A DNA stretch of 64,000 nucleotides from Bilabrum cf. latius (GCA_965178125.1 OZ237741.1:1364001-1428000), one strand, 5' to 3'. Shown: positions 1 through 64,000, counted from the stretch's first letter. Numbers and translations: made by a program. The notes: a model not told the origin generated them from the sequence alone.

Positions 1-432
1 TATAGGAAGTTCATGAGCAAAGTGCACCCGGACCTGTTCACAAAGTACCCAGAGTTGCAAGAGACGAACGAAACTAGCCTACAAAGCCTGAACGAGGTAC
101 TGCAAGGCGCCAAGAGTGGAGTCGTGGACTCCGTTCTCAAGCCAACGAGGATGGATTTGGATTTCTTCGTCCGCACAGACAACGACCACGAGTTTCTCAA
201 AGTGCCCCTCCGGCTGCGCCTGGCCGGCGGCTACTGCAAGCGCCAGGCCGGAGAGTAGATGGGCGCGCTGTTCCACAAGTGTGGACTACCCAGAGTGTTT
301 GACTGGGGCAAGGATTACTGGTATCAGCGCATCCGGCCCGCCGCCCCGGAGCGCAAGGAGGACGGCAGCGTGGACGAGGAGGCCGAGCAGAGAGCGCAGG
401 CATAGAGGGAGGCCTATCGTCAGCGCGGGTGA
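1..432 (+). CDS. DUF4460/TCAIM N-terminal-like protein, 5'-truncated by window edge
   Basis: YRKFMSKVHPDLFTKYPELQETNETSLQSLN resembles the DUF4460 'F..VHPDLF..P....N..SL..L' pattern. In-frame TAG at 256 and 403; first TGA at 430-432 (could instead be an intron donor). Confidence 0.6.
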
Positions 433-646
433 ATGGCAGCAATGCACAGCATACCAGGTATTATGGTTCTCTGACATGCACACAGAACCCACCCAGTCAG
501 CCGTTTGGATGACTTGCATCGCCCTGCACATGCACTGCCAAGCGGTGGACTATCCATCTCGCGGGGGGCCCCCCGGGCGCGTGGCCGGCACCATCACAAT
601 AGCTTCGAGCGTACTGTATTCACGCTATTGATTACCACTGCAATCC

Positions 647-2002
647 TCACGACTTCCACACGAGCACTTTATGCGCCGCGCCCGCCGCCCTCGACAGCAG
701 CACGGCAGCCGCGGAACCGGCCCCGAGACCCCCTCCCTCCTTGGCGAACGAGCTCGCTCGCGCCGCCGCCTCGTGCCCTTTCAGCTCCAGCGCCTGCGCG
801 CGGGCGGTGGGCAGTGCACACATGGCGGACACGGCCCTGCAAGCCTGCGCCGAGGCAACGCCGGCGGCCCTCGCGGCTGCACGGGGGGCCTCCGCTGCGG
901 TGGTGCGCGCTAGCTGCGAGCCGGCGATGGACGCCGGCGACGCAGCGGAGACCGCAGATCCCGCCGCGCCATCGCCGCTGCTTGCCGCCAGGAGCTTGGA
1001 GGGGTCAAGCACCCCCACCAGCGCACTCGTCACACCTGCCTCGTGGAACGCACGCTTGGCGTCGTCGTCCACCGCCGCCAGCGACACCAGGGAACACAGC
1101 TGGCCCAGGGCACGCACCGCTCCCATCCAGGCCGCCGCCCCCGCACTACCCCCCGCTCCCCGCGCCGCCTCGGCCCATGCCTGGAGCTGTGTCCCCACCG
1201 TGGGGCAGCCCCCCTCCTTGACGAAGGCAGCCTTGCCCCCCGACGGCACGGTGAGGCCCACGAGGGCCCTGGCCGCTGCCTCCACGATCCCTGCATCGGC
1301 TCCGGGTCCCCCTTTCTCCCTCGCGGCCAGCAGCCGCAGCACCGCGTCGATGGCACCCGCGGCCAGCGCCCCCTCGCAGCCGCTCCCACTTGCCGCCTGG
1401 GAGCAGCCGGCAAGCGATTCCAGCACTAGCCGCAGGCACCGAAGATCTTTCTCCGTGCCACACCGCTCGCAAAGCAGCTTGGGATATTCTGCGTCCACTA
1501 GGCTGTCGCAGGCGTCCCCCTGGGCCCTGGCCATCGCCTCGACGCCGGTCAGGGCCGAGAGGCGGGTGGCGGGGTCGCCATCCACAACGAATTTCCCGAG
1601 CCCAGAAAGAATGGCGCCCCTATGTTTACTTTCAACCAACCACATCCTACCTGTGGACTGCGCCATGGCGTCTCGCAAGCAATCAGAGGCTCGTCGGCGC
1701 GCCTCAACCGCAGCGAGCTGGTGCAGCTCCGAAATCAAAGTCAACATTCCGGCATCCGCCGCCTCCCTGCAAGCAGTTGGCCCTGGTATTAATCTCTAGC
1801 TGCGCTGGAGCGCGTTCAATATTACAATTTTGTCGCGTTTTGCGACCGCGGTGCGTAATCTTGACACAAGCTCTGGAAACCTGTCTCGCTCGAAGGCGAG
1901 GGTAACCGTGGAGGCCCCTTGCGGCTTGAAGTTGGACCTAGTGGCATGAACCGCATATACATCGCTAACAAATGCATCTGGAGGCCCGCCTGCAGCCGCC
2001 AT
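647..2002 (-). CDS. RSPH14: Radial spoke head protein 14-like armadillo-repeat protein
   Basis: ORFs 1796..2233 and 647..1747 are in the same frame, joined across TAG at 1796-1798. Recognised segments: N-terminal 'TVTLAFERDRFPELV', 'AAARALVGLTVPSGGK' and C-terminal 'AAHKVLVWKS'. Ends TGA. Confidence 0.7.
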
Positions 2003-2113
2003 GGGAGCAATTTTGAAGTCTCCAATCCATCCGTTGAGAACGGTATGTGACGAGTGCGCGTGAACGGAAATCTGCGTGAATGAAACAGGCATAATCTTGG
2101 TTTGATAGGCTAG

Positions 2114-3214
2114 ATGGACACTGTTACGGCAGCTGGCACGAAAGATGTTGGGAAGATTCACGCCATGTTCGAAAAGTACGACCGAGATGGCAGCGGGGCG
2201 CTGGGAATGGGCGAGGTTCGTGCGCTGATGCACGACCTTGGCCGCGACAACGAATCTGACCTCGCCCTGATGTTTGCCGAGATGAATGGAAGCTACAGGT
2301 AGGCATAGACATCAGTTACAAAGTCAGAGTTTACTCGGTGGTGGATCCGAAAATTCAAGGGGCAGCCTGGGCAGAAGCTGAACCGGCTGCTCGTCAGGGA
2401 CAGCCTGGGCAGGCCGAAGGCGTCCTCGTATAAGCTGCCCCCGGAAGATTTCTCGTTTGGTGTAAAGGCTGGAAAAGACAAGTACGACGCCGGCGCCACT
2501 CTGCACGGTTGGAACAGTAAGGAGGGCCCCAGCCCGCACGACGTGCTCGCCGCCAAAAAGCCCAAGATCCCCAGGGGCAAGGCAGGCACCATGTTCGGAC
2601 GGCCCATGCCGCGGGATAACACAGACACAAGCAAGGTAATGGCTCACCAGTACGGCGGCTCCGAATCCAGAGACGACCCGGAGTACCCCCTCCGGTCCGC
2701 CCTCACCAAGCCAAAGGCGGCCAAGGGGGCCGGCGGCGTGCGCGGCACCAAGGCGCAGACGCTCCGCGCGCAGGTCACGCACGAGGCAATCGCCGCGGTG
2801 GAGGCCCCTCCCTCCGACTGGAAGATCCGGAGGTACCAGGGCATCGGCAAGCGGCTGGACACCTCCGCGCACAAGCAGCCAGACGCCTTCAAGGAGATGC
2901 TGCGCCGTCGCAAGGAAGCAGACAAGAGGAGAGCCGAGCAGACGCAGCTGTTCAGCAAGGCGGGGCCCAAGGCCATCCGCAGGGCTGCAGAGGCGCATGC
3001 AAGAGAGAAGATCGGAGCAGCCAGGAGGGGCGAGCGGGAGGCGGCGCGCAGGCACGCGGAGGCCATGGCGGCTAGTTCCGGTTACGTGCCCGGGGGCGCG
3101 GAGGCAGAGGAGGAGGAGGCGCGCATGGAGGCAGAGGAGGAGGCCGCTGCAGGAGGGGCGGGCAGCGCGGAGCATGGTGAGCTGGCCAGCGCGGAGGAGC
3201 GTAAGGGGGATTGA
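2114..3214 (+). CDS. CFAP77: EF-hand + CFAP77 (DUF4483)-like axonemal protein
   Basis: EF-hand 'FEKYDRDGSGALGMGEV', then TAGs at 2300 and 2306, then 'LLVRDSLGRPKASSYKLPPEDFSFG' (CFAP77-type). One continuous frame to TGA at 3212-3214. Confidence 0.65.
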
Positions 3215-3449
3215 GAGGGGCAGCGTGCGTGGGGCAGGGCTTGGATTTGCAGTGGGGGTCTAGCTAGACCTCCCCAGTCCAGCCCTTAGCCAGTCTCTTG
3301 AAATCGTGTATTTGGGACCGAGTAAAATTTTCTCTAAAGAATCCTTCTATCACTCAATGCTCAGCACATGCATTCAACTAGTAGCTCTACTGACGACTGC
3401 CACTCCACCCAACCCAGGGACTCTGTGCTTGCAGTTCACTGCACCTGCC

Positions 3450-5322
3450 TCAGGTGGCCTCGGGCAGGGTCCAGTTCTCAGGGAGCGGGCCCTGGTCGTG
3501 GATGATCTCGCGATGGTGGGACCACACGAGCTGGATGGCCTCGGGTGTCCCTATGCCCGCCCCCCTGGGATCCCCCGAGGGACCGAACCAGTGGTTCTGG
3601 GGGGCGCCAGTGGTGCGGGCCCGGATCCCAGTGTAAGTGGTCCCGTTCACGGTGGACTGCAGGATCCTGTTCTGGAAATCCATGTCCCTGCTGACCACCG
3701 CGGCGGTCAGGTGCTGCTCCATGCGCTCGAGGCACTCAAGGACCTTGTCCTCGTCGTCAGGCCCGTCCCCCCACTCCACCACCACCTGCATGGGCCCGAA
3801 CACCTCCGTGGTGCACAGCTCGAAATGATCCTCCGAGGCGAATACCTCCAGCGGGACCTTGACCGCGGTGGGCTCGATGAGCCCGTACCTCTTGGGGACA
3901 GAGTGCGCGCCCCCGTGGAGCTCCTTGCCCCCGAAGAGAACCTCCGCCCCCGGAAGGGCAGCCAGCTTGTTGGCGTGCTCCAGCATCGCCTCGGTGGTCC
4001 ACGTGAGCACGGGGCCCACGGTCAGGTCGTCCAGTCTCCTGCGGCCCGCGAGCTGGCCCATGGTGTCGAGGAGGGCAGAGTCGCGGGACCACTTGGTGTG
4101 CGCGAACAGCACCGACTGGGCCGAGCATTTCTGGCCCGAGCATGCGTAGGCGTCCTGATCGCACTGCCACGCCACGTACTGCGTGTCGGTGTCGTCCCGG
4201 GGCCCGTCGGGGCCAAGCACCTTCCAGTCGAAGCCCGCGTCCTCGGTGCGCATCTTGCCGCCGGTCACCTGGAAGAGCTTCTCGCTGACCTTGCTGCTTC
4301 CAGTGAACAGCAGCGTGCGGGGCTTGGCCTTCTCCAAGAAAATCTGCGTGACGGGCCCCGAGGCGTGGAGCAGGTCCGCGTCCTGGGCCGGGAGGCCGCA
4401 CTCGGAAACGCACATGCGCAGGAACTGCTCGATCACGATCGAGACCTTCGAGTCGATCTTCAGGGTCGGACGGTTACCCATGAGCAGAGCGCCCATCAGT
4501 TGCTGCGGAAATGGAGGAGCAGGGAACAAGGGGTCGCATAATATGGCTTTCACGCAGATGGAAAGGCATCGGTGCAGTCATCCGGGCTGGAGCAGCTGCC
4601 TCCCTTCTCACGAGCACGGGGATCTCGATGGGAAAGCTGCGAAGCGAAAACAAGGGGCGTCTTTGTTACTACTGAGATTCCAAGTGCACGCAAAAAGGCT
4701 GAGGCAATCAATGCGGACACGGTTCTCACTTGAAAGGGAGGACAAGGCCGACGTGGCCGTACGGGAAACGATAGCCGCGGCTCTCCTGGCCAGCATGATC
4801 ACCTGGTACGCCAAACGAACGAGCCAAGAAACGTCCATTGTCGCTAGCAAAGTTTTCTAGGAACTTTCGGGTCACGACGACCTCCTTTTGGGCCTCGGCG
4901 TACGACTTTGGGGAAACCCGCTGGACAAGCCTTGTGAAGAAGTCGAGCGTCTCTTCATCCCTGAGCTTCTGTCCAGCCGCGTTGCAGACGTTCGAAATCA
5001 GCTGGTACCGCTCGGGGTTTTTCAAGGGGTTGTGAAGACCAGTCTTCGGGCAAGATCGGGCGGCATCCACGAACTCCTGCACCTCTGCCTCGCTGGTGTC
5101 TGGGATCTGCAGAAATTCCTCCCCATTCAGGGGATCCACGACCGTTTCAGAAGCAGCAGTGTCCTTCCAGCGCCCTGCCACGAGGTTCTGGGCCCTTCCA
5201 GGGTTGGAGCCGCACAAGGTGCGAGGATCCACAGTCGCCCAGCCGGAAACGCAGCGCAACCCACGAAGGGCAGAAACTTGCAGCCCGCGGTGTGCAGCAA
5301 CTCGTCGTAGCTGGCTGAACAT
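3450..5322 (-). CDS. ALDH12: Delta-1-pyrroline-5-carboxylate dehydrogenase, ALDH12 type, with mitochondrial-like N-terminus
   Basis: Motifs 'TGLHNPLKNPERY', 'PFNFPIEIPVLQLMGAL', 'FTGSS', 'EDAGFDWKVLGP', 'AYACSGQKCSAQS', 'RARTTGAPQNHWFGP'. Introns at 4637-4729 and 4503-4611 flank a 25-nt exon. No in-frame TAG; ends TGA. Confidence 0.92.
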
Positions 5323-5863
5323 GTCTTGCGCGTCTACAGGTGTGCTGGAAAATGAATGGCACCGCGAGGATTCCGGTCCCACGCGTTCGCGAGGTGACGA
5401 TTGTTCCGGCCTGGCCGCGCAAAATCCAGGATACGATCCATCATCGTGCAGTCGCCGGCGGTTCCGCAACACTGGCAGCAGCTGCACCACAGTGCTCGAT
5501 CGCGCGAGAAGCGGTCCAGACTAATCATAGACAAATTGAACTTCATTCGTACCTCGCAGGACAGCTGTCCTGGTCTGTGCCCCCCTTTCCACACCACTGG
5601 TGGCCACGCGGGCAGCTGCGGCGAAATCGGTCTACATTCGCTGCACCTACTGGTGGAATGGGCCTCCCCAAGCCACCACAGGCTGCCTGCGCTGTTGTAA
5701 GCCCCCCTCTTGACACCGCCTCACGCTCCATTCTGGCCACGTTCGACATGCTTCATGCCAGCTTGCCCGTGTTGTTATTGCATTGCACTGTGGCACCCAC
5801 AATCCAGGATATCTAGCATTATGCTAAATGCTGCATGCTGATTAGTCACAACAAGTCGTAATT

Positions 5864-6582
5864 ATGGCTGCTGCTGCGGTGAGCGTTCCAGTTTCTGCAT
5901 GATTGTGTGCTTGCATGAGTGTCTGCATCCTCGGCTTGTACCGCACGAATTGCCAGAGTCTCCATTCCGTCCGTATGCGCAGGGTAGCCACGCAGGTGAT
6001 GGCGACGACAGGCTTTCAGAGCGCCATTTGCGTAGCAAACCCTCAAAAGCTTCGAGTGGCAGCGCTGCCGGAGAGCGGAGTGCAAAGGGCCGTGGGACCT
6101 CCGAAAGAGTAGTTGATGCGGAGGAAAGCATGGATTGCCGCCTCGGGCGTGAGCTGGCCTCATCTTCCACTTCTGCAAATTGGAGCACGCTTCCCGCAGT
6201 CGCAAAGAAGGTCAGCAAGCGCTTGGGGTGGACCATAACTCCCCGAGAATTAGATGCTTTCATGATAGCCGTTGGAGACAAGGAGCTGGAGATGCACGGA
6301 GTATGGCGGCACAGCTTTGGCAAAAAGTACATGCCCATTGTTGCGGTGAATCCAGCGTGTGGAAGGCAGAAGCAGGTCCATGGAATGGTATGCATGTGCG
6401 GCGTCGCAGCGGGCGCCAAGGCTGCCAAGGAGGGCGGGCGGGCCGCCCGGTACTTTGGGAGCCACGACTACAACGCTGGGCGCCACTCTGCCACTATCAG
6501 TAGCCATAAAATATCGTGCCCAATGTGGGCTCCTTCGGATGCCGGGCATCAGCACAGCTGGCGGAGAGGCTTCGAAGACTGA
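5864..6582 (+). CDS. Hypothetical protein (~200 aa)
   Basis: ATG 5864 (MAAAA), gtgagc donor at 5879, cgcag acceptor ending 5982, then an open frame to TGA at 6580-6582. No family recognised. Confidence 0.5.
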
Positions 6583-6744
6583 AGGGCCTGCTGAAGCGGT
6601 GCTCTTCTTGCATTGATTCGTTCGTTGTGCCGAATCGGTTCTAGAGGTATACTAAATCAGCTAATTGTCTGTGTGAACACAATCACTTCAAAACAACCGC
6701 ATCGCTCTCCTACCATCACATCACCCACATCATCCGTCCCGTCA

Positions 6745-9155
6745 TCACGAGGACCCTTGGAAGAACGGCTTGAGAGTCTTCTCGTACTGCCCCAGCAGCG
6801 TCTCCTCCCATCCCTTGATGATCTTGCCCCTCTCCTCCTTCTCCGCCGGGCCCAGCACCTCTTTGGCTGACAGCTCGCAGAACCGCGACAGCTCGGGCCC
6901 TGGCTTGAGCACCTCGCCGAGGTCGATCGCCTTCTCGTCCTTCTTGTAATAGAACCTCTCCTGGGACAGCAGCTCCACTAGCCCGCTCTCCTCCCTCGTC
7001 GTGACGACGTTGAACACAACGCCCTTCTTGTCATTGCGGCCCGTGCGCGCGCACCTGTGCCTGAACTGCACAAAGTCGGGCTTGCCCCTGTGCGGCCCAT
7101 CGAACTGCACGGGCATCGTCAGGTTCACCACGCACTGGCAGTTCTTGAAATCAACCCCGCGGCTGTACGCATCCGGGGCCACCAGCACCTTGGCCCTGTT
7201 CTCCCTGAAGGCGCGCAGGGCGTTCAGCCGCTGCATGCGCTTGGGGAAGCTGGGCATGCCCCTGGTGATGCGCGGGAAGGCCACGTTCCTATCGGCCGCC
7301 TGCTTGGCCGCACTCTTCAGGATCGCTCCCGTGCTGCTGACCGTCTCGTAGAGACCCATGGGCTTGCCGGGCATGTCCCGCTCCACACCCTGGAACACCA
7401 TGACCTGGTTGCCCAGAGTCACGCCCAGCCCCGACAGCAGGGCGGCGCACGTAGTCTTGGCAAACTGCACGGCCCCTGCACCTGCCAGTGGAGGTGCCCC
7501 CACAACCTTGCTCGCAGCCTCCAGCATCGCATCGGGTACCACGCAGCGCACCATGGTCAGAGTGGGGAGCTTGTTGTCAGTCACCTGGATCTCCACCCAG
7601 GGCATGGGGTTCTCTTTGCCCCCGCGCTCCTGCACCCTGAAGTTGTCCGTGCCAGCCACCAGGAACTCGCTCGAGTGCTTGCCCATCAGTACGTCCACCA
7701 CCTGCCGCACCGAAGGGTCGGCCAGCTTCTTTGTCTTCTCGTCGGGCTCCAGGGCGTCAAAGGTGGCGGAGAAGAGCATCCACTGGCAGGGCGCGCACTT
7801 GGACCACTCGGAGGACTTCATCCTAGCCTTCTCCAGCGCGGTGCAGATCTTCTTCAGGTCATCTCGCTCGCCGGGGTTCTTCAGAAGATCGTCTGCCTCA
7901 TCCACTACCAGCATGCGAAGGGAGGAAAGGTCGGCCTTCGCGGCCGAACCGCCGCGATCCCCCCCTCCCCTGCCGCCTCCTCGACCTCCACCCCGGCCTC
8001 CCCTGCCGCCTCTGCGGCCCCCTCTTCCGCCCGGTGGCGTCCCAATCCCGATGGCCTGCTTGAAGAACCCCTGGGTGCTCACCACGATCTGGCAGGGAGC
8101 CCCCGAGGACAGCTGCTTCAGGTCCTTGCCCTCGTCTATGCGCACCACACCGATGGGCTCCTTGCCCTCCTCCTTCAGCTTCTCGTTCACCTGCTTCAAC
8201 AGGCCGTTCACTATCTCGGCTACGCCGGCCGCGCCCCCACTGGCGGCGCCAGGGTCCGCCGCCCCGCACGCTGCCTCGCCGCCCGCCTCCTCCAGCAGCG
8301 TGTTGTACGCGTTGTCGATGAGCTCGGCGTTCGGGACGTAGATCCAAGCCAGAGGCACCGGCTTCAGCAGGTGCTTGCTCCCCGGCGGCGCCCTGCAGGA
8401 GGGGTCCGTGAGCAGCTTGCGGATGACGGACAGCGTAAAGGCGCCCGTCTTGCCCTCGCCGCCCTCTGCCTGGGCCAGCGTGTGAGGAGGCATATTGTAA
8501 GTGCCTTTAGGACTGCGGTACAGGGATGGGTGGGAAAGGGAAAAGGGGGGGGAGGGAGGTGGTAGAGATAGAGAGTGGCAAATCATACCGAAGCGAAGCA
8601 AGACGGGCTGCGCGAAGGTGGCAATCGGGTGAGGACTGGCCCGTCGGCGCGTCTGTGAGACATGCATCCGTTCCGCCGGCTCAACCGTGCACGACCCATG
8701 CGGATTACCATGCACACGATCGACAAGCTCACTGGGTGATGCTGGCCATCTGAGGCCCCAGCACCTGCACTTGCACCGCCTTTGGCGTGGGCCACTGCAT
8801 CTCATCCTCGCCCTCTCCCACGAGCTGAGAGATCACAGCATCCATGTATGCTTTCATCGGATCGCCATCCATGCCTGCCAGCAATACCTCCTCCCAATCC
8901 TTGCCACCACCCTGCATCAGCTCCTTCACCTCATCCTTTGTGAGGTTCACGGCCTCCACACCAGCAGAGCACGACACCTCCACGCTGTACTTGCTATGAT
9001 CAGCATCACCGCTTGCACCAGCTCCAGCAGCACCTGCAACAAGGAAATCGGGGAAGCTATGGTCAGCGGCAAAACATGGATGGAAGGCAAATTCTCGCGA
9101 CCGCTAGCTCCTGTTGCGAGCGCTTACCAGGATCGGCACCTGCTACACTTGCCAT
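6745..9155 (-). CDS. DEAD-box RNA helicase, DBP5/DDX19-like (divergent)
   Basis: Q motif 'MQWPTPKAVQ', motif I 'AQAEGGEGKTGAF', 'VVDEAD', 'LFSATF', 'SRGVD', 'PDFVQFRHRCARTGR', plus an RGG insert. Introns at 9034-9127 and 8513-8732. Ends TGA. Confidence 0.8.
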
Positions 9156-9350
9156 AGCAAGTCAGTTCAAGAATAATACGCTATGAAAACGAATCACTTG
9201 GCTACCTGCAAGCACGAATTAAAGCACTTCGCAGATGTGCAGCGTTCGCACAAATTGGCAGAGTGTTGTTTTGTGGATTGTGCAGTGTGGTTACTAGTCA
9301 TTCGGAGCCAAAACTCGACGAAAACTGAGCGAGATAAATATTCGTGCAAG

Positions 9351-13066: not shown

Positions 13067-13109
<43 letters not shown>

Positions 13110-20775: not shown

Positions 20776-20811
<36 letters not shown>

Positions 20812-43543: not shown

Positions 43544-43601
<58 letters not shown>

Positions 43602-48859: not shown

Positions 48860-48934
48860 GTGGCTGACCAGCGAATTGCATCTAGATATGTATCTGTACA
48901 GGCATTCAAAAAGACCACACAAGGCTCCCAACTC

Positions 48935-50560
<1,626 letters not shown>

Positions 50561-50917: not shown

Positions 50918-50973
50918 CCACGCGGAGCGACCACGCGGAGCGACCACGCGGAGCGACCACGCGGAGCGACCAC
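50918..50973. repeat. Perfect tandem repeat, 13-bp unit CCACGCGGAGCGA x4 (+CCAC)
   Basis: Seen directly, in the divergent intergenic region between GSR and the giant surface-protein gene. Confidence 0.95.
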
Positions 50974-51141
50974 AGTTTTGGTTCCGCAACAACAGGCTGC
51001 GGCGCCGATTCTCAACTGCAACTGACGTCCTTGTGGGCGCGTCACTCTACAAGCCGCCGAAACTGCACTGGCTTGGCAGATCTTTTCGTTAAAGAACATC
51101 AGTTTGGCTAGATTGGGATCAAGTTTATCTGAGAGCACCAA

Positions 51142-54100
51142 ATGGTGACCGTCAAGGCGAAAGCAGTGGCAGTCCGAGGGATTTTCCTCGTAACGGTAGT
51201 TGCGATCGTGTTAGCCGCACCCATCGCACGGGCCTAGATCAGCGAGCTTTCGTGCTCCGCTACATTCGAAGATCTTGCGGTACCGACCATTGGGAGCGAA
51301 GTTGAGGTTCGTTGCCCCGGAGAGTGCCCCGCGGCCGAAGCGGATACCCTGGGTGGGTGTGGCCCTGTCTACAGCCAGGGTCCCGTTTGCTCCGGAGCTG
51401 CCCTCCAACTGTTTGGAAGCGCGTTCATGCGCCTTCGAAGATCATTTTTAATCCGCCGAGTTGACTTGTCAGGGCAGCTGGAAGGCTGCACAGCGCACAG
51501 TGTGCAGAGCTCCTCGGACACTTCACCATCTCAGGCGTTTGAGATCGTGGACGTCGAACGAAGTAAGCAAGGTTGTCAGATAAAATCGTAATTCCGTTTT
51601 ATTCGGCCTTGGATCGCCTAAAGCGCGGTTCACTGACAAAAGCCAAACCCGCGAATTCGCATGGATATTGATCGCGTTCTTGCTCTATCTTGGGGACTCT
51701 ACATTCCATCCCTTACTGTCGACTTCGCAGTCACGATTTTGAACTGTGATGCACGTATGAATCAGACCGAGCTTAGTTCCAGCAACCCAGCCGGATCGAG
51801 CCAGGCCTACGTGTGTCCCGCTAGCTGCCCGGCGAGCATCACCCCCGTGGTAGAGGGCTGCAGCACCTACTCGGATCGATCCTCTGTGTGCGCCGCTGCG
51901 GCGCATGATTTTGGTGGATTTGGCAGCTCGGGCGCTTTCGTGGCCACCACGCGGGCTGGACTCCCGTCCTACGGGGGTTAGTGCTCGAGGAACGGCGTAT
52001 CACCTCAGGAGGGCATTGCCAGTGCCCTAGCCTTTGAGCTGGACAACGCGTGGACGCTGCCTGCGCGCGTACCGTCCGTGGACGTGCAACGCATCTCGGG
52101 AGAGGAGAGCAAGGTCCGTGTGAGCGCCCGAGTGCCCTCCTCGGGTGCAGCCGTGTCCTACATGCAGATCGAGGCCGAGCCCCTCTGCTTCCAGGACGAA
52201 TTCGAGGGGGCCACAGCCGACTTACAGGACAGGCACTGGACCTGGCACGCCCCGGCATGCCAGACAAACGCGCAGACATCCGGCAGCCGCTGTTTTCATT
52301 CCACCTCGCGCGCCTCGGGGGTGCTCACCATCAAGGCGGGGCCGGGGCTGCAAGTCTACCACAACGACGACTTCGCACGACGCCGAGGCAACGCACCCAT
52401 GCTCAAGAGACCGGAGGCATTTGAGCACTGGCACGACTGGAGCGTGGAGACGTACATCGATCCGACTAGTGGCAACGACGGTGGGCGGGTGGTGTCCAAC
52501 ATATGGGGCGGCATCATGATCCTGGACGCCGAGAGGAACGACGCACCCATCATCACATGCTTCATCGCGGTCTGGAGGAACAACGGCATCCGCGCGTGTA
52601 GGATCATGAATTCCCAAGCATCGTCTATCGCCACCGGTCCCGTCCCTACGAATCGCCGAGGATGGATCCGTATATACTATAGCGCTGCCGCCCAGCGCTT
52701 CTCCTTCCAGTCTAAGGCTTCCATTAACGCGGACTGGGCCGAGTTTGGGACCCGTAATGCCGAATCTGCTGGTAACAACGGGCGTATCAACCGGTATCGT
52801 CCGGCGCTGTTCGTGAGAAACTGGAACGGGGGCACTCTTGCCTCTGCTAACACCGTGTACGTGCGCTTCGACCATTTCAGGACCCATGTGGCAGGTGCGT
52901 GTGGGGAAGAAGGCGTCAAGAATACGCTTGTGCACGTCCTGCCCGTCCCCCCTGGCACCCAGCCTGGCGCTTTGCTGCAGATGGACGTAACTGCCCCCGA
53001 GCGGGTACCCCACACATACCGAGTGGCAGCAGTGGGCGAGGTGGGCGTGGCAGGGCCGCTGTCCGAGATACCCACTGCTGGTGATGCGCCTAGCCGCCAG
53101 ATTGGCTTTCCCCTCAGCTAGGCCGCCATTTCGAACCGAGGCCTCCGGTTTTGGTGGGACTTCACGAGGTTCAGGGGCCGCCTTACGGACGGTATCGGCA
53201 GCCCTGGTCTTCGACGGATTCAAAACGAGTTTGGCACCACGCACGCCTACCAAGGCGACCCAAACCGACGGCCAAAGCTGCGTACGGGGCTGCTCGGGCC
53301 CAACGCGGGCATCGTGACCACGAGTAGCGCGCAATTTCTCATCTCTGCACATCAGGACAACACCGTCATCAACGGACCCAGGAATACGTTCTTTTTGATT
53401 GCTCGGTTCCGCAACCCAGGGGCCTGGACATGGATCTTTTCCAAAGGGAACGGAGCGGGTGCTGGTGACCAGGCGTACGGAGCCCTTCTCGGGGCGGGAT
53501 AGCATTACGCGTTCAGGTTCTCCGGGAGGAGGGCTCCTCAGTACGGGCTAACCTCCAATGACGGAACCATCCGCCAAACGTCTTTCTCCAACAATCAGAT
53601 GGTGGCTCTCATCGAGTACAGGACCGATTATTCGTTCTGCATCCACTGCCGCTCAATGTGGATGCGTCTAAACGAGCGCGGTGCGAGCATTGCTGACGGA
53701 TTTGGTGCATCCCCCATCTTTCCTGGCGGCCCACGCAACAGCTACAAAGCCATGCAGCACATCAGCGGGCCCATGTCACCCGCTGGACGATTCTTCAACG
53801 TGCAGCCGACCAACACGGACCCGTTCCATTTCCTCGCCAATGAAGCGGGGCAGGCCACGCCCCAGGCCGAGGTGCTCGAGTTCATTCACTTTAAGGGCGG
53901 GAACGCAAACGTGTGGGGGGCGGATTACACTGCAATGAAGCAGTACTTTGACGACAAATACGGGCGTCCTTCCCGCTGCAGCGTCCCAGAGCTGATGCTG
54001 GCGAGCAACTGGTCCTCACATGCGTCCTGGTCCGACTGCAGCTCGCGCACCAACCCTGAAGGTGGGTAGCGATGCCCGATGCGCTGCGTTCGCGAAGATC

Positions 54101-57100
54101 ACACCATCATCGCAGGTACTCCCGACGCTTTGCGCTGCGAATTCGGGGGCTGGATGGGGTCCATGCCGTTCTGTGGCCCAACCTGCCCGGCCCTGTCGAG
54201 AGGCCAGTCGAACGCAGCTACATGCACCGAGGACCTGTGGCACGATGATTTCGTCCTTCACTTTAGGCAAGGGGCTACCAATCCGGCTGCCATCGCTGCA
54301 CGCGGTGCGGCTGCCTTCGAGGGGTACCGCGTACTCCCCCACATGCCAGACGATTTCCGCAGGCAGCTGGCTACCCTCGGTTCTGATGCCAACGAGACGG
54401 AGCCGCACCATCGGGAGTTTCTTGAGCTGAACGGAGCTCAGAGAGTCGCGCAGCATGGCCTCAAGGAACTTGCCGAAGACGTGATCTTGACCCCGTTGTA
54501 GCCGCAGTACACCGGTCGCACCACGGGAACTGAGCCCATCCGTGTAGAGGCCGAGATGCGAGTGGTGAGCGGGCACGGGGGTGTGGTGTGGCACTTACAG
54601 GACGGGGGTTTCTCGGACGAGATGCTGGCGGGCAGCTACTAGAACTACTACCGATTCAAGTTCTCGTCTGCTGCGCGCTCTGGGCTTGCCGTGCACTCGA
54701 TCGAGAGGGTGAGCAGACCCACGCAGCGGGACAGGTTTCCTACAACTCGCGTGCTGGCCTCCACCTCGGGGGTCCTGGACAATCCGGGTGGCTGGCACCA
54801 TGTGCAGGTGATTTTGTCTTACGGCATGGCCGAGTCCGGGGGTCCGGGTTCGATCCGCATGGAGGCCTTCATCGACGGGAGGCACATCCTGACCGCTGAC
54901 GAGGGGCCGGCAGCCAACCCGCTCCCGTCCACTGCAAGCACAGGCGTAGCTGCCAGCCAGGGCAACGTGAGAGTGCGCTCCTTCACGGTGGCAAGGGAGT
55001 GCCCCGAGGGGGGCATCATCAACGACGCCCCGCGAGGAGAGAGGGTCCGCATGAGCTGCGCGCCCGGCTTTTCCGGTGTGGGCTCCGCCGCGCGAACTTG
55101 CAATGTGTACGGTGAGTGGACAGGAGAGCCGTTTGTGTGCCGGACGGATCCACCCGTGTTCGGCAACACCACCCGATACGTGGACGAGCACAGTCCTGTT
55201 GAAACGCTGGTTGGCCCGCCGCTCGAGGCACGGTCGCCCCTTCCCGTGACGTACGAGCTGTTCGAGCCTGGCAATGACAACGCGTTCGGGATCGATCCGT
55301 GCACCGGTCAGATCTACGTGCGGAACAACGTGCTTGACTTCGAGCGGACGCCCTCGTACCGGCTCCGGATCTTGGCAAAGGCGAATAATGACGCCTTTGC
55401 CGTGAGCGAAGGCTTCGTGACGGTGCGGCTGAACAACATCAACGACCCTCCAAGGTTTCCCGGGGGGTAGACGCTGGTGCTAGAGGAGAACGCACCGGCT
55501 GGCACCTTGTCCAACTAGGCAGTGGTTGCGACAGACGATGAGGGCAGCCCCCTGCTATTCAACGTGACCGTAGTGGGTTCCCTTGGCTCTGACGCCGCCC
55601 TCGGGCCTCTACTGGGAATGCAGCGAGTGAACGATACCGCCGCCCAGCTGCAGGTGCTCCGAGAAGACGCGCTAGGTCTGCTGGACTTCGAGTCGAGGGA
55701 GACGATCCTTCTCATTGTGCGAGCTTACGACGCCCAGGACCACTCTTTGTTCAGCGATGGACTTGTCACGCTCTATCTGCTCGATGGTGCCGATCCGCCG
55801 AGGATCTTGCCGTCCCAGTTTATCACGATCGACGAGGACACCCTGCAGGCGGGGCCCTTCCCGCTGGCTCTGTCTACCGCGGTGCAGGTATACGATGAAG
55901 ACGCGCAGAGCTCCGGGGGCACCTCTGGCTCAGGTACTAACACGACATCCGGTGGAGCTGGCGGTCAGACTGTGGGAAGCGTGCGCCTGTTCTTTGACCA
56001 GGGCACTGCCGCTGCTTCCACGTTTGGTGGGTTGTACACCGATGGAACCACCAGGCTGCAAGGCCCGTCGGTCTTCAGTCTCAACAGCTCCTCCTACCTC
56101 ATCTCGTTCACGCAAGCACCGGTGATCAGCAGCAATGACGAGGTCTTAGTCCGCGACGACAGCACGGACACCACGTACATCGCCCGCGGGGCCTACAACC
56201 TCCAGCTGCGTGCCAGGGACGGGGACGGTTTGGACTCCAGCCCGCGCAATATCACGGTGCTTGTGACGGTAAACACGACGGGTGTGGGCGGTGCGTCGGT
56301 GGATCGCGTTGACGCAGATGGGCCCGAAGGCTTGCTGGCGACGGATGGCTCGAGCACTATCGTGATCAGCGGCGTGGGCTTGGAGAGCATAACTGGGTCC
56401 ATCGCCGTGGCGTATGGTCCGTACACAGCCACGAGCTGCGCCACCGTGCGAGAAGCCGTGCCTGATTCCGAGGACATTGTCTCGATCCAGTGCCAGTCGG
56501 TGCCAGGCCACGGAAAGGATCACCGCCTGCACATCGTGGCGGAGGGCCGGGTACTCCGTGCCCCCTCGCTGCTGCTGCTGAGCTACCAGCCCCCTGCCCT
56601 GGATGGTGTGACCGGCGTCAGGGCGAACGACACGCTGGGCGTGGGCGGGCTGGATGTGTCCCGGTTGCTTACCGCGGGTGGACAGGCTGTCTTCTTGCAA
56701 GGCTCGGGATTTTCCAGCAACTCCACTGCTGTTCGTGCCTTTTATGGCCCGCAGAACCCAGCCTGGATCGATCCAGAAGGTGACGAGGTCGATCGAGAGG
56801 ACGAGTCGTTCGACGCCACGGACCCAGTCCAGAACCCCAGGTACCTCTACGAAACGCTCGAGGCAGACATCGTGTCGGTGTCTGACACCGAGATTGCCGT
56901 GCGCACCGCTGCCGGGATTGGAACCAATCTTGGCTGGAAGGTAGTTGTGGATGGTCAGGTGGCGTACGGCTCCGAGCAGGCTGAAGTCGGCTACGGGTTA
57001 GCTATCGTAACGAGTCTTGAGCCTACCTCGAATCTGGCAGCCTCTCGCTTTGAGCTGCCGACGCGCGGAAGTGCCGGAGTCTCTAGTCGCCGCCTCAATG

Positions 57101-60100
57101 TCCTCGGTCACAACTTCGGTCCAGTGTCGTGGCTGGGCCAGGACGTGCAGGTTCAGATTCGCTACGGGCCGACGCCCGACGGCAAGCTTTACCAGGCCCC
57201 TTGCAGCAAGCCCTCGGCTTCTGGCAACTAGCCGCATATGGAGGTGTCGTGCGCGGTGGCAGAGGGTGTGGGCACCAACTTGACAGTTGCGGTTGGTATT
57301 AACGGCCGCTGGTCTGTGCCAGAGATGGGCAGCGATCTCCTCGTGCTCGGGGCCACGATTCCAGACGACGGCAGCGCGTCGCCTCCTGCACCGCTGCAGC
57401 ATGAGGCGCTGCAGATCGCCCTAGAGGATTCCTTGGCAGCTGCTGATGGCGTCGGTGCTGTCTCTGCAGACGCCGCCTCCCTCGGCTACAGGCCCCCGAG
57501 CGTGTCTGCTGTTGAAGGGGAGAGCATCCAGGAAGCCGTGACGCCCGGTGGCCAGATCTTTCGCGTGCTCGGCCAGGACTTTGGCCCTCCCGACACATCA
57601 GGGCAATCAGTAGACTGGGTGCGTTATGGCGGGGGAGGCCTCGCAGCGGGCGAAGCGTATGCTGCCGGAGGTCGTCTCGCAGGCATGGGCGGCATGGTGC
57701 GTGGAGACGGGGGCGCGCTCTCTGGTGCTCTGCAGTCCATGGACTGGTTTGCCGCGCAAGACTGTGAAGTCCGTTCCCACGAAGAGCTCAGGTGCTAGAC
57801 CTCGGAGGGCACCGGCAGAGACCATGCCCTGGCGGTGAGCGTCGGCGGGTAGGCCTCAAGCGTGCTTGGACAGCCTGTGATCTCGTACCAGCCGCCATCC
57901 GTCGCTGCATTTGAGGGACCGGGGGCAGAGGACGCGGCTACGGTCGGGAGTGAGACTGTCATTATCCGAGGGCGTAACCTAGGCCCATCTTCTCGGTTCG
58001 CAGCCGTCGCGAGGCTGTTCTACGAAGTCGAAATCAGCGAGGACGGTCAGGGCGGCGGCGCTAGGCGCACGATTCTGTTCGAGGCAGAGTCTTGCAGCAT
58101 GACTACAGGAGCCGAAGAGCACGTGGCCGTGACTTGTCAGACGGCCGAAGGAGCGGGTGAGGCTCTGGAGTGGATTGTCAGCGTGGATGGACAGAACAGC
58201 TCCTACCCGGTGACTAGCTACCAGCAGCCGTCCATTGCCAGCGTCGGCGCCGTTAGTGACATGTCTGCCATCGAGAGCGCGCCGACTGATGGTGGAACCA
58301 GAGTTCGCATACTGGGCAGCAACTTTGGGCCAGCGACCCTCTCGTTTATGCTGCAGCGGGTCATATACGGTACGCGCGAAGCAATCGCGCGAGACCTTGG
58401 CGATTCATCCCAGTCGGGTGGAAGCAGTGCCGGTGCCGGGGACAGTTTCCCTGGGTACGTGTACGAGGCCACGAACATTGAGCTGGTTTCTCACTCCGAA
58501 ATACGGGCTACTATGGTGCCCGGCGTAGGTAGGGATCTGGTGTTTGTCGTCACGGTGGCAGACCAATCGTCCCTGCCCTCTGAAGTAGGCGTGGGCTCGG
58601 TGTCGTATGCCCGCCCCACCGTCGAGTCGATCACTCCAGCTTCGTGGTTCCCCAACACAATCGCTGACCCCACGGCAGTCACGGTGGTAGGGCGAGATTT
58701 TGGCCTACTCCATGCGGCCTCCGATGTGGCCGTGTCCTTTGGCAACCCGGCCGACTACTCATCCCAGGGTGCTCTCATCTAGCCACGGTCCACGCGGATT
58801 CTGCAGGACGGCAGGCACCAGGTCGTCTTTGATCTCCCGGCAAGTCACGGTCTGGACCGCGCGGTGAGGATCGCAGCTTACCCCCGAGGCGTAGCCCTGG
58901 ATCGAGCAGCCGACGTGGCTGTGTTTAGTGACCCCATCGTGGATGGCCCATCTTCGTTGTTCGACTACTACGACCCGGTGCTGGACTACCTGGCGCTCAA
59001 CTCCCCCTCTCGACCCGAGGAGATTAGCTTCATCGCAAACACGTCGTCCCTTGGCTGTCCCGAGCCATCTGGCATCAACGCGTACTGCGGCCTTCGGATC
59101 CTCAGTCTATTTGGCCGAAACATGGGTACGTTTGAGCCACCGATCGCGCCGAGCATTTTCCTGTCCTTCCGTGATTTCCCGACAATTGCCATGCCAGACC
59201 AGGACCGGCTCGTGGTGCTCTCTTGGAAGGACGATGAGATTGTCTTGCTCACCAAGGCAGCCGAGGGGGGCGTGCAGGTCCAGATCAACTCGATGGGGTA
59301 CCAGGACCCGCAGGACGCTGGGACTGGACCAGCACCCCTTATGCAGCGCAGCGCCAGGTTGATCTTCTAGTCTGTAGCTCCCGACATTTCTGAGCTAAAC
59401 GGCCCCTCCGAGGTCCCCACCGTGGGAGGCGAGGACATCACCATGGAGGTGGAGAACCTCAACGTGGGGCAGCGGGTGGCGGTACTGGTGGGCACTGGTG
59501 GCAGGGAGAGAGTGTGTCGGCTGTACAGCTCCAACGGTGCATCACTGTTCAATGGAGAAGCAGATGGCGGCGTGGATGACCCCGCCACTGCTGCACTGGC
59601 GACGTCCACGGCGCAGACAACGCTGAGGTGCCAGCTTCCGGAGGGCGAGGGCTCCGCGGTGCCTGTGACTGTCTAGACGTGGACAGGGACCGACTGGAAG
59701 CGGTCCCGTGTCGGCGGAACGATTCGCTACAGCAGCCCGACAATTTTGCGAGCCTAGCTGCTCGGTGGGCCCGCTTCCGGGCTGGGGACTGCAGGAGCAG
59801 CACAGGACCCGACCCGCCCGCTGGCGTCCGAGAGCGGTGTACCCGGGGCTGGCTTGCCCACCGTGGGGGGCGTACTGAGAGTAGTAGGCGAGAACCTGGG
59901 ATTGTGTCCTACCATCCTGTTCGGCGCACACGACCCAATCCGATCATGCGATGGAAATGGCCTCCCGTTCAGTCCGCCATCCTCGCTGTCACAGCCTGGC
60001 ATACTCTCTAGGAGCCACAGTTTCATTGAGGTTCGCTTGCCGGCAGGTCATGGGGCTATGCTCAGGCTAGATGTTGACGTGGCCGGTCAGCTCCCGAGTG

Positions 60101-63100
60101 CCAATGGTGCAGGCGCTCGATTTCTTCGAGCCTCCTACGACCAAGCCACGATCCAGGACATTGGTCCTAAGCTCGCGAGCGATGGTATGCCAACCAGCGG
60201 TGGTTCTAGGATTAAATTGATCGGTCGAAACCTTGGAGCACCCGACGGCAGCGGCGGATTCGCCGGCGGGCCGCTCGTGGTGCTGGATGTTTCTGGAGGT
60301 AGTGCCAATGCCTCCTCTTCGAACGGAACCAGCGTCTCAGGCAACAACCCCCCTGCGTTGGTGGCACCAGACGGAGGGCCCCTGTACCGTGATCGCGTGG
60401 TGGAAATGAGGTCGCTGTCAGGGACAGGGGCAGCTTGGATCAGCTGCGGGGCCGTGCTCTGGGTTTCCCACGAGGAGCTCGAGTGCGTCCTCCCGGAGGG
60501 TATGGGCAAGACGGTCGATGTTCGCATCCGAGTTGGCAACGCCCCTCCTGTTGTAGTGCGAGGCGCTGCATCGTACGACCCTCCTGTTGTCAGCTCCATG
60601 GCCGTGTACCAGCCCATCCCGGGGATGGCTGCGGCGCAGATGGGCAGGGCTGGGCTACTGAGCGCGGGCGGGCCCGAGACGGTGGCATCTCCAGGAGGAG
60701 AACCACTGCAGGGCAACACAACGGGGGGCTACGTCGTGCAACTGCTCGGCGAGAACTTTGGCCGGCCCTTTGGCGCGTCAGCCGGGTCGCCGTCCCTTTG
60801 CGTGTTTCTTGCCCACGTGTACCGAGCTAGACCAGACAGCATGCCCTCGTGCGACAACCGGGAGTCGTTCCTCGGGGAGGGCGAGATCGAGGCTGCCTCG
60901 ATCTTGCACTGGTGGCATGATGAGGTCATGTTCATCGTGCCAATCGGGGCTGGCACTCGCGAGATTCGCCTGTTTGTCGCTGGCAACCTGCTGGCCGCGG
61001 ACAGGGCCGTGCTGGCCAACACCACCGCTTCGCCTGCCACCCCTGCTGTGCCATCCATGCCCGGCTTCTCGTACCGGGCCCCATGGATCGAGCCGGGCGG
61101 CTTGCGGCCGGACCGAGGGTCCACAGATGGCGGTGACTTAGTGACTGTGTTCGCACGGAACCTGCCGCCTCCCCTGCTGGAGGGTGCAGAGGCGCAGGCC
61201 GCGGCGGATGCGCTGGCTTCCGGCATGGGCGTTCCGATTTCGCTGGCGCCGTTCCTGCCAGTGGCTTGGCTGCGAGTGGATTTCTGGAAGGACTGCATCA
61301 CGAACGCAAGGACGATCGACGGGTTGTTCCCCAACGACCCACGGGTGTCCAGCTGCTACCCCCGGAGAGACGATCGCATCGACATCCGGCAGCAAGATAT
61401 GGAGTCGATCGTGTTCAACTCGGCGCCTGGCGTCGGGAAGGACCGCCACATCTATCTCACGATTGTCGAGGGCAACATGGGAGCAAACACGAGCAGTGTG
61501 AACTCTGCCCAATGGAACTACGATCCTCCTCAGATTGATGGTGCCGACCCCTCCGGTCTAGAAGTAACGGGCAATGTCGTGGATGAGATCGACCTTGTGG
61601 CTACCATGCAGGATGAGTACCAGGCAAAGTTCGTGGGTCGCAACTTCGGTTATGATGCTGACGCAGACCGACAACGCTGGACGCCGGAAGAGCGGCGGCT
61701 CGTGCTGCGTATCGGAGGGCAGGAGTGCCTGCCAAACACCACTATCCGCGCCCGTGAAACCATCCGCAGAGGGGATGGTGTCGTCGGCTTCCGGCCCACC
61801 GTGTCGTGCGTCATACCCGAGCTCTCGGTAGGGTACAAATCGATCGAAGTCGAAGCAGCGGGCTAGAACGGCACTTCCGAGGATATCCTCCTGTTCGCGT
61901 GCGACGGAGGCTTCTTCGGGGATGCCACTGAGCTTTGCCTACCATGCCCCATGGGTGCTGACTGCTTCGGGCACCTGAGACTGGTGCCACAGCTGCATGA
62001 TGATCTGATTCAGCAGCGCAACATCGAAATTCAGTAGCTGCGCGAAGCTATTGTGCAGCTTCAGGCGGACGCAGAGGGGACCACCTTAGACTCGTCTCGT
62101 CGCGCACTGCAGGACGCCGGCGGCGGATCCGACGAGCGGGACAGTGGCGAGCTGCGGTCGCCTGCCAATGCGAGAAGCCTGGGTGCGTCTCTTGACCACC
62201 CGAGGTACTTGACGGTCGACATCGACCTGGACGACGGCCCCTGGCAGCCGAAGTACTCTACCGTGCTGTTCCACCGCCCTAGGCCGCAGCCTGGTTGGTT
62301 CAACCTGAACGACACGGAGCAGCTGTCCGAATGCCCCGAGCTTTTCCGCATCGAAGATCGTGCGTAGTGCGTCGTGCCTTGTGACCCTATATGGGCGTGT
62401 ACCGGGGACAACTTCTGCGCCACAGGCTACAGAAGCGTCGGTCCCGAGTGGAGATGCAACGCCTGCGACGAGGGCTACTACCGCCGGGCTGGGGAATGCG
62501 TAGAGTGCCCCGACAATCCGTGGATCCTGATCGCAGTATTCATCATCATCATGATCTGTGGCGTGGGGTTCGTTTACTTTCTGGCCAAGTACAACATCAA
62601 CCTGGTTCTGACCACACTGGGAATGGACTTTTTCCAGGTACTCGCTTTATTCGCCCAGTCACGGGTTCCCTGGCCCCCTGTGCTGGAGGAGATCCTGCAC
62701 GTGCTGTCCGCGTTCAACCTCAACATTGAGATCACCGCACCCGAGTGCACGGTGCCCGACCTCAGCTACATGTCCAAGTGGGTGTTCATCATGATGCTGC
62801 CCGTAGCCGGTCTCGTGTGCCTCTCGCTCGTGTACTTCAGCGTGTCCGTGTACGAGCACTGCATCAAGGGCAAGACCAGGACCGAGGCATGGTACGGTCA
62901 GCACCTGAACAGGTGCATCTCCATGTTCCTCGTTGGCGGGTACATCTTGTATCTCATCCTCTCCAGGACGTCCTTTGACGTGCTCAACTGCTAGGTGAGG
63001 CGCTTGAGTTTGCTGCTGCCTGTTGCTTTGACCACTTTGTGCTTGCCTGTGTACCGTGACTCTATCGCGTCGTTCGAAATTCCCGTATCTCGCAGCCGAC

Positions 63101-64000
63101 GACCCCTCCAGATGGCCGCCTGTACCTCCAGGTTGTGTTCGAGCCGTGCAGCAAGCCCGGCGGGGTGCATCGCACGCTTCTTGGCCCCGCCATTATCACC
63201 ATGCTGGTGTACGGCTTGGGGTTCCCCGCGATCGTGTTCTACGTGCTGTACACCAACCATGACCTCATCATGGAGGACCAGCTGCTGCGTGCCATGAGGA
63301 TGGGCGAGGACACTGTGACAAACCCTCACGCGCACACGATTCGCAGGAGGTACTCTAAGATGTACTTCGCATTCAAGCCCATCGGTTACCGCATCTACTG
63401 GATGCTGGCGCTGATTGCTCGCAAGTTCTTCTTCGCGCTGACGTCACTGCTGTTCGTGCGCAACGCGGTGATGCAGCTGTCCATGTCTCTCCTCGTGATG
63501 TTCGCCGCCTTCGCGGCTCAGACGAGGTTCCACCCTTTCATGTCACCGGACGAGATGGAGGACACGCTTAGGCAGCACAAGCGGCTGTCATTCGACCCCA
63601 GCTCGCCCCACTCCAAGCTGGCAGCAACCATCAAGTCGGTGGTGCAGAAGGGCAGGAAGCGGGCCACGTACGGACAGGGCTTCCAGAGGCTGACCGAGTC
63701 ACCCAACCTGCTCGTGCAGTTCGGTGGCACAGTGATGGGGGCCGCCATTAACTACAACACCATCGAGTCCGTGCTGCTAGGATCTGCCGTGCTGGTCAAC
63801 CTGAGCGGCATTATGTTCAGCTCGGGCCAGCTTAACACGGACGAGACGGGTGAGTACTATGCTGGGTACAGGGACACTCTCATCGCGCTGACTCTGGTGA
63901 TTATTTTCGGCACACTGATCTACTTCTTTGCGGTGTTTGCGTACGACATCTACACGCTCTGTGCGTCGGCCCAGGAGGCAGAGGCAGGGGCCGGGAAGAG
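51142..64000 (+). CDS. Giant (>4100 aa) cell-surface multi-pass protein: signal peptide, 2 LCCL, lectin/LamG-like regions, Sushi/CCP, cadherin-like, many IPT/TIG-like repeats, Cys-rich region, multiple TM helices; 3'-truncated by window edge
   Basis: Exon 1 51142-51562 (hydrophobic signal ending ARA), intron 51563-51730, exon 2 51731-62994, intron 62995-63095. LCCL 'GCSTYSDRSSVCAAAAH'; Sushi 'CAPGF...RTCNVYGEWTGEPFVC'; cadherin 'FGIDPCTGQIYV..LDFE...NINDPPRF'; repeated 'GG..V.I.G.NFG'; TM segments from about 62520. Twenty in-frame TAGs and no TAA or TGA. Confidence 0.85.

Follow-up and report, generated by a model that had tools for sequence, protein, structure and literature searches.

The stretch of DNA analysed here comprises 64,000 nucleotides (nt) of Bilabrum cf. 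latius (GCA_965178125.1, OZ237741.1:1364001-1428000) and is referred to in full as the window. Its G+C content is 62.6% (base counts over the whole 64,000 nt). According to Pfam and Rfam scans, both strands carry protein-coding genes, about 23 in total, introns are few and a single gene for a U2 small nuclear RNA (snRNA) is present. Since GT..AG introns and the U2 snRNA gene are present, the window is nuclear. Throughout the window (1-64000), TAG is found as an in-frame sense codon on both strands. We propose that cytoplasmic translation of this organism reads UAG as Gln, a change of the nuclear code, with UGA as the usual and UAA as a rare terminator. A probability of roughly 0.88 is assigned to this reading, jointly with the source being a GC-rich, intron-poor, cilium-bearing protist from whose nuclear genome the window was obtained. 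The resulting code table is presumably the same as NCBI table 15.

In many long frames, Pfam domains are present on both sides of the TAG codons. This is seen for genes with CFAP77/EF-hand, Tub, protein kinase, TTL and ankyrin domains, as well as for those with UNC45/Arm, biotin ligase, TatD and glutathione reductase domains and for a giant gene with LCCL, Sushi, cadherin and TIG domains. UBE2K-like, Ubc9 and AhpC/TSA-like genes were recovered by six-frame Pfam scans of two gaps. The open reading frames (ORFs) at 1-780, 5842-6579, 8633-9325, 16752-17462, 18373-19101 and 24932-25723 gave no Pfam match and were excluded from the gene count. The main set used for counting consists of 19 coding segments of 18 genes on both strands and holds 16,256 codons. 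Here, 79 in-frame TAG (4.9 per 1000 codons), no TAA and no TGA were counted. At least one TAG is present in 16 of the 18 genes, the TAG-free pair being the P5C dehydrogenase exon and the DEAD-box helicase gene. Outside this set, the ankyrin gene adds four TAG codons and the first exon of the giant gene contributes one. A preliminary description of the window had put the number at about 90 in-frame TAG in 19 of 23 genes, which is borne out within the uncertainty of the gene starts (79 + 4 + 1, plus unsupported ORFs). It had further stated that the frame is never broken by TAA or TGA, which agrees with the zero counts, themselves partly built in as discussed below, and that TAG occurs inside conserved enzymes, which is seen in uninterrupted alignments for glutathione reductase, biotin ligase, Ubc9, UBE2K and TatD.

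The lengths of ORFs were compared under four codes, the standard code and those with TAG, TAA or TGA as a sense codon. With the standard code, the longest stop-to-stop frame has 793 codons, and this maximum stays the same if TAA is taken as sense. Reading TAG as sense results in frames of 3886, 2194, 1461 and 1450 codons. The TGA-sense reading yields many frames of medium size (88 frames reach 300 codons or more and sum to 40,431 codons, the longest having 924), since no stop triplet is more frequent than TGA at the GC content of the window; TAA is the rarest one in each frame, with 44-61 occurrences per frame. A count of stop triplets with long open flanks on either side gave no discrimination, since at 63% GC even random and antisense frames reach considerable length.

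A second, earlier set of 15,552 codons, in which each frame begins at the first ATG, holds two doubtful TAG codons upstream of the likely start of the P5C dehydrogenase. Its reading frame contains 69 TAG, 0 TAA and 0 TGA, and its two off-frames contain 97/93 TAG, 31/39 TAA and 232/257 TGA. Within this set, TAG accounts for about 11% of the Gln codons (69 TAG beside 479 CAG and 87 CAA). The share of TAG among the Gln codons falls with rising G+C at third codon positions (GC3; Spearman -0.64, p = 0.006, 17 segments), and no TAG occurs in the top three segments by GC3 (0.83-0.89), namely the P5C dehydrogenase exon, the DEAD-box gene and exon 3 of the giant gene. TAG behaves here as a non-preferred synonym of CAG and CAA.

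The identity of the amino acid is best seen in the giant membrane protein gene (51058-64000, plus strand; Pfam LCCL, Sushi, cadherin and TIG), which runs off the window. Exon 1 (51058-51562) encodes a signal peptide and carries one TAG, exon 2 (51731-62994) carries 19 with the last one at 62992-62994, and exon 3, from 63096 to beyond the window, carries none. The two introns, 51563-51730 (168 nt) and 62995-63095 (101 nt), display GT..AG ends and correspond to the joints of spliced contigs. A search with the giant protein, in which TAG was translated as X, returned five proteins. Four are Logan fragments with 94-96% identity, and these have Gln at all six window TAG sites that they span. Two more TAG sites coincide with fragment borders, as two of these fragments break off immediately in front of them and one begins just behind; therefore this 94-96% identical copy has stop-like codons there, too. 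The fifth match, 71% identical and from a JGI metagenome contig, has Gln at both TAG sites spanned.

From this JGI contig, 13.3 kb (57% GC; hereafter L001) were analysed, the coding part lying within 1-9295 (plus strand). The orthologous frame is open over 2555 codons only if TAG is sense (12 TAG, 0 TAA), and the next exon adds three more, resulting in 15 TAG and 0 TAA in 3,082 codons. The intron of L001 has the same position as the window intron 62995-63095. Since L001 also carries in-frame TAG, the UAG code is shared by a clade. At the window TAG sites, L001 has CAA or CAG in 11 of 13 cases, including the exon-final TAG, and GAA and GCC in one case each. At the TAG sites of L001, the window has CAG or CAA in 7 of 12 cases, Leu in two and Asp, Glu and Ser in one each. 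None of these 25 TAG sites is common to both. In the alignment of window and L001, ordinary Gln codons of the window meet Q in 45% and the codons of any other residue meet Q in no more than 7%, and the chance of finding at least 10 Q in 12 sites is 5e-14. A likelihood ranking based on the alignment's own substitution table placed Gln 42 natural-log units ahead of the second-best residue, Glu; Leu and Ser were not among the six best-fitting residues in this ranking. Leu or Ser occurs at none of the 19 window TAG sites covered by the two close relatives (0 of 6 and 0 of 13), and UAG as a Leu or Ser codon was rejected on this ground, the one distant exception being the I/L/V column of Ubc9 described below.

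In distant homologues, conserved Gln columns are met in biotin ligase and TatD. The biotin protein ligase gene (40986-42284, plus strand; Pfam BPL_LplA_LipB; TAG at 41250 and 41850; TGA end) has TAG 41250 at the conserved Q of the Q-T-x-G-R-G-R motif. Q is present in 5 of 5 PDB alignments shown and in 136 of 141 homologues, these being the ones that cover the column among the 150 best library homologues; the remainder are three gaps, one L and one H. The TatD-family (TATDN3-like) gene (44741-46099, minus strand; Pfam TatD_DNase; TAG at 45947, 45653, 45488 and 44999; TGA end) matches PDB 2y1h with E = 2e-32. The two PDB alignments that cover TAG 45488 both have Q at this site. Thus, the enrichment of Gln at TAG columns, on which the preliminary description had made its reading depend, is found in close orthologues as well as in these two enzymes, and its claim of UAG as a nuclear Gln codon is supported by the counts, the orthologues, the Q columns and the spliced contigs described below.

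Several points weigh against this reading, here and in the consideration of the alternatives. The frames were initially bounded by TAA and TGA, hence the zero counts of both triplets are partly built in, which is countered by the count of gene ends and a drop in coding score. In the comparison with L001, 2 of 13 window TAG sites and 5 of 12 L001 TAG sites are non-Gln in the other lineage. Compared to distant homologues, most TAG sites lie in variable columns or are aligned to residues other than Gln. The second TAG of biotin ligase falls into a variable column or an insertion, and TatD TAG 44999 aligns to H. The glutathione reductase gene (48938-50560, minus strand; TAG at 50483, 50363, 50285, 50084 and 50078; TGA end) matches PDB entries with E = 3e-124 in an alignment continuous over two TAG codons and Pfam Pyr_redox_2 at 1e-64; two of its TAG columns are variable (G/A-rich and A/T-rich) and two lie within an insertion. 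The last exon of the UBE2K-like gene (24702-25154, plus strand; Pfam UQ_con and UBA, a UBC core plus UBA; PDB UBE2K E = 2e-39; TGA end) has TAG 25053 aligned to N of human UBE2K. PDB TTL alignments cross three TAG codons of the tubulin-tyrosine-ligase-like gene (19455-23453, minus strand; Pfam TTL at 2e-29; seven TAG; TGA end), which are aligned to D, E and G, and the TAG sites of the ankyrin repeats correspond to variable polar positions. The last exon of the gene for Ubc9, a SUMO E2 (25822-26055, minus strand; PDB Ubc9 E = 3e-16; TGA end), contains the sole TAG site in a column conserved for another kind of residue, since TAG 25954 aligns to I, L, V, L and L in the five alignments shown. In the UBE2K of this organism, the equivalent helix position is occupied by a Q encoded by CAG, and in human UBE2K by L; Q is therefore tolerable at the Ubc9 site. 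Non-Gln and variable columns are compatible with Gln, because new sense codons are expected first at variable sites. The pattern in distant homologues fits Gln, although by itself it would not prove Gln.

Termination was assessed at 20 gene ends, of which 18 are TGA and two are TAA; this count omits three ORF ends in introns (P5C dehydrogenase exon 1, the first ankyrin frame and giant exon 2) and one ORF running off the window. UGA is clearly the main terminator. UAA is probably a minor terminator. One of the two TAA codons ends the AhpC/TSA-like gene (18958-18960, plus strand; Pfam AhpC-TSA upstream), with the next TGA 12 codons on, and the coding score changes from +0.57 in the 60 codons before to -0.32 in the 60 codons after it. 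The other one ends the ankyrin-repeat gene (33736-33738, minus strand; Ank repeats upstream), where the score changes from +0.17 to -0.05 and no frame is prominent downstream. The stop-blind coding-score scan is partly specific, as antisense frames score positive, and was used for these two TAA ends only. That UAA and UGA both remain stops, as claimed initially, is clear for UGA and probable for UAA, which is never in frame; the terminator role of UAA rests on two window genes, a point on the opposing side.

Here, a code in which UAA and UAG both encode Gln (table-6-type), with UGA as the sole stop and UAA too rare at 63% GC to show, has to be considered. The strong excess of TGA over TAA at gene ends and the rarity of TAA in every frame would agree with it, and the two codons change together in most known cases (PMC11687900). 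Nevertheless, in the 15,552-codon set the ratios of A- to G-ending codons are 0.18 for CAA/CAG, 0.22 for GAA/GAG and 0.21 for AAA/AAG, which predicts 12-15 in-frame TAA (12.5 from CAA/CAG) beside the 69 TAG if TAA were Gln, and none was observed (P <= 4e-6). This result is not purely circular, because sense TAA codons would cut genes into many TAA-ended pieces, and two such ends are seen. Moreover, the coding score collapses past TAA 18958 and drops past TAA 33736, and L001, with 26 CAA to 78 CAG (0.33), should have about five TAA by our own arithmetic beside its 15 TAG, and has none. With 0 TAA in 16,256 window codons and 0 in 3,082 L001 codons, UAA and UAG as joint Gln codons were rejected, and we consider this code very improbable. 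Slightly less remote, yet still improbable, is a context-dependent UAG, which encodes Gln inside genes and also terminates translation near some 3' ends. The ORF models read through all TAG codons, so that a terminal TAG would escape notice, which counts against our reading as well, and TatD TAG 44999 lies about four residues ahead of the end of human TATDN3 and is followed by an 86-codon low-complexity tail. However, the TatD alignment goes three residues beyond this TAG (LIK vs LLQ), glutathione reductase, Ubc9 and UBE2K stop at a TGA close to where their homologues end and lack a TAG in the vicinity, and TAG as a stop is required by no gene in the window.

It could also be argued that the TAG codons are not translated as written, due to errors of assembly or sequencing, U-to-C editing of the mRNA or pseudogenes. 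Part of the stretch is contained in 13 listed runs of eight studies, and four of these runs from four studies (X1, X5, X6 and X7) were compared over 44700-63300. The contigs of X1 and X6 continue through both introns of the giant gene and are therefore DNA-like, whereas those of X5 skip both introns and those of X7 the second one, with GT..AG ends, as expected for spliced molecules. Only two differing positions (63260 and 63267) are listed in these 18.6 kb, neither at a TAG. Pieces from X5 and X7 include 33 of the 34 modelled TAG codons of this region without a differing letter, the 34th being the last codon of giant exon 2 on the splice joint itself. For example, an X5 contig of 1699 nt (48877-50575) covers glutathione reductase and another X5 contig covers the TatD gene, both without differing letters. 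Within the limits of the contig data, neither an assembly error nor complete U-to-C editing can account for the TAG codons: the window is matched by DNA-like contigs from two further studies, and the spliced, RNA-like contigs retain T at the TAG sites, which answers both checks named in the preliminary description. On the other side, Logan contigs were used, in which rare variants are dropped, so that partial editing could still occur; no run is on record as RNA, and X5 is labelled 'RNA? (probably DNA)', its RNA nature resting on two spliced joints. Pseudogenes would have to number 16 of 18 genes, yet frames of thousands of codons are free of TAA and TGA, and the independent metagenome contig L001 has in-frame TAG as well, at different sites. 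Taken together, TAG codons that are not translated as written appear to be next to impossible. For the Gln reading itself, a variant with the same code but another mechanism would be that a tRNA-Gln with anticodon CUG reads UAG by a first-position mismatch while eRF1 is blind to UAG, with no dedicated tRNA(CUA). TAG is a weak, non-preferred codon avoided in the genes with the highest GC3, and near-cognate readthrough of UAG by tRNA-Gln is mentioned for standard-code organisms (PMC13192750). In contrast, the reported UAG-only cases in which tRNAs were found have CUA anticodons (PMC11687900), and mismatch reading would be costly for a codon used 4.9 times per 1000 and in 16 of 18 genes. This variant is unlikely, although it has the best standing among these alternatives.

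By analogy to other stop-to-Gln codes, UAG would be decoded by a tRNA-Gln with the anticodon CUA. A single base change of the anticodon from CUG to CUA would produce a tRNA-Gln that pairs with UAG and not with UAA. UAA would stay a stop because CUA cannot wobble onto UAA, and eRF1 would no longer recognise UAG and still read UAA and UGA. That a CUA anticodon does not pair with UAA is also the explanation offered for UAG-only codes (PMC11687900). Among the points against our reading is that the decoding machinery, tRNA as well as eRF1, is what we infer only: ARAGORN revealed no tRNA gene in the window, in L001 or in L002, and no eRF1 gene is among the Pfam matches of the window.

A UAG-only Gln code is in itself already known. 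For the fornicate Iotanema spirale, UAG has been reported to encode Gln with UAA and UGA as stops and UAA as the primary terminator, and UAG-only Gln codes are also listed for Protocruzia tuzeti, Hartmannula sinica and Trochilia petrani (PMC5304391; PMC11687900). The preliminary description was right to name Iotanema as a precedent; its list was incomplete, since the latter three species were missing. Iotanema resembles the window as a non-ciliate flagellate in which UAG alone is reassigned, and to Gln (PMC5304391). It differs in its primary stop UAA, in contrast to 18 TGA and 2 TAA among the 20 gene ends of the window. Furthermore, the data on Iotanema, an anaerobe, are transcriptomic, whereas the window is genomic DNA of 62.6% GC with a glutathione reductase, which has an N-terminal extension, and a P5C dehydrogenase. 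The codon table of Hartmannula sinica, Trochilia petrani and Protocruzia tuzeti is the same as that of the window. In five UAG-reassigned phyllopharyngeans (two Gln species and three Leu genomes), UAG is present in 78-91% of genes, compared to 16 of 18 in the window; in phyllopharyngean ciliates, UAA makes up 87-98% of the stops at a GC content of 27-54% (PMC11687900), in contrast to the dominant UGA and 63% GC of the window. A further distinction from the UAG-only ciliates lies in the introns of the window (168 and 101 nt) and in a long contig with many genes.

In the more common code in which UAA and UAG encode Gln (NCBI table 6; many ciliates, Ulvophyceae, Hexamita, Streblomastix and Amoeboaphelidium protococcarum), stops became Gln codons as here. 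The step from the anticodon CUG is probably shared with the window, whereas UAA is sense there and never in frame here. The genomes of Amoeboaphelidium, an aphelid with this code, have about 40% GC (PMC10608142), compared to 62.6% for the window, and Amoeboaphelidium was rejected as the source on this ground. UAG is uncoupled from UAA, like in the window, where it encodes Leu (rhizarian exLh and TARA phyllopharyngean genomes) or Ser (Scotinosphaera) (PMC5304391; PMC11687900). TAG-recoded bacteriophages ('code 15') have formally the same table with TAG as Gln (PMC9523058); these phages are translated in bacteria, whereas the window belongs to a eukaryotic nuclear genome and contains spliceosomal introns as well as a gene for U2 snRNA.

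What sets the window apart is UGA as the main stop, 63% GC, the introns and an aerobic-looking gene set. An independent origin of the change from UAG to Gln is likely, albeit unproven. Whether this is an unreported independent origin in a GC-rich, aerobic, non-ciliate and non-fornicate flagellate clade of at least two lineages including L001, the first one with UGA as main terminator and arisen without AT mutational pressure, is an evenly balanced question at present. No report of a GC-rich, non-ciliate lineage with UAG as Gln besides Iotanema was found in a search that lay outside subscription journals and supplementary files. Codon-capture models invoke AT mutational pressure for the loss of UAG. 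This GC-rich lineage with its main stop UGA is informative, and comparisons can draw on contigs of genomic DNA, on transcript-like data and on an environmental relative. It allows one to test the need for an AT-driven loss of UAG as well as which changes of eRF1 separate UAG from UAA. The rate at which new UAG codons spread is testable as well, with 0 of 25 TAG sites common to the 71% identical relative. Nuclear code changes outside the ciliates are known from a handful of lineages, and an uncoupling of UAG from UAA is rarer still (PMC5304391; PMC11687900); in the UAG-only Gln cases consulted, among them Iotanema and the phyllopharyngeans, UAA is the favoured stop.

A practical consequence is that gene callers using the standard code truncate most proteins of this organism. 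The database entries P0001, P0121-P0125 and P0253 represent such fragments. A second, diverged copy of the genes of 44700-63300 is present in the runs compared above, with database fragments 92-98% identical to proteins of the window, as indicated for example by the differences at 63260 and 63267 and by a loose end at 63297. Here, a contig leaves the window sequence, continues with synonymous-looking differences and encodes K-Q-G-E-D-T-V-T-N-P as in L001. This copy may stem from another haplotype, from a recent duplication or from a co-occurring sister strain.

TAG codons and TGA ends are also found in further genes. These are a UNC45/armadillo-like gene (36120-40421, minus strand; Pfam UNC45-central and Arm; nine TAG), a gene of 2063 codons without a Pfam family (27000-33188, plus strand; six TAG), which is open only with TAG as sense, and a gene of 846 codons of unknown family (46319-48856, plus strand; six TAG), of which 46285-47471 and 47520-48667 are covered by X7 contigs without differing letters. 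An ORF of 706 codons (42557-44674, plus strand; eight TAG; TGA end) is of unknown family with no convincing Pfam match and has the coding score as its sole support, +0.14 compared to -0.10 for the competing TAG-free frame 42966-44495. The two genes of the main set without TAG are the P5C dehydrogenase (ALDH12-type), represented by an exon at 3453-4577 (minus strand; Pfam Aldedh; 375 codons; GC3 0.89), and the DEAD-box helicase at 6748-8805 (minus strand; Pfam DEAD and Helicase_C; 686 codons; GC3 0.83). The P5C dehydrogenase belongs to the ALDH12 type of plants and green algae; among named matches, it is closest to those of Polytomella (64%), of land plants and Chlorokybus (59-62%) and of a Woeseiaceae bacterium (61%). 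For glutathione reductase, the best named matches are scattered over Vitrella, diatoms, a haptophyte, an oomycete, fungi and bacteria with 44-52% identity. Neither enzyme thus points clearly to the affinity of the organism. The C-terminus of glutathione reductase (48938-49010, minus strand) extends about 23 residues past the end of all PDB glutathione reductases, and the N-terminal extension holds a TAG. The short spacer between this gene and the divergently transcribed giant gene is occupied by a perfect 13-bp tandem repeat of 4.3 copies (50918-50973; CCACGCGGAGCGA).

In the TTL-like protein (22278-23696, minus strand), the TTL motif W-L-I-E-V-N-G-A-P corresponds to W-L-L-G-F-G-(TAG)-N-P in the PDB alignment, with Gly in place of both the Glu and the Asn of the motif. 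Judged from this motif, the protein may be catalytically altered or inactive. The full-length U2 spliceosomal snRNA gene (19088-19277, minus strand; Rfam RF00004, 68 bits, model positions 1-192) sits between the AhpC-like and the TTL-like gene. Finally, hexanucleotide microsatellites within coding frames (13067-13129, 15599-15682, 20084-20124, 20755-20811 and 43538-43613) result in dipeptide runs. The Tub gene encodes (GE)n, the kinase gene (GA)n and the 706-codon ORF (EG)n, and both (GM)n and (AQ)n occur in the TTL-like gene.

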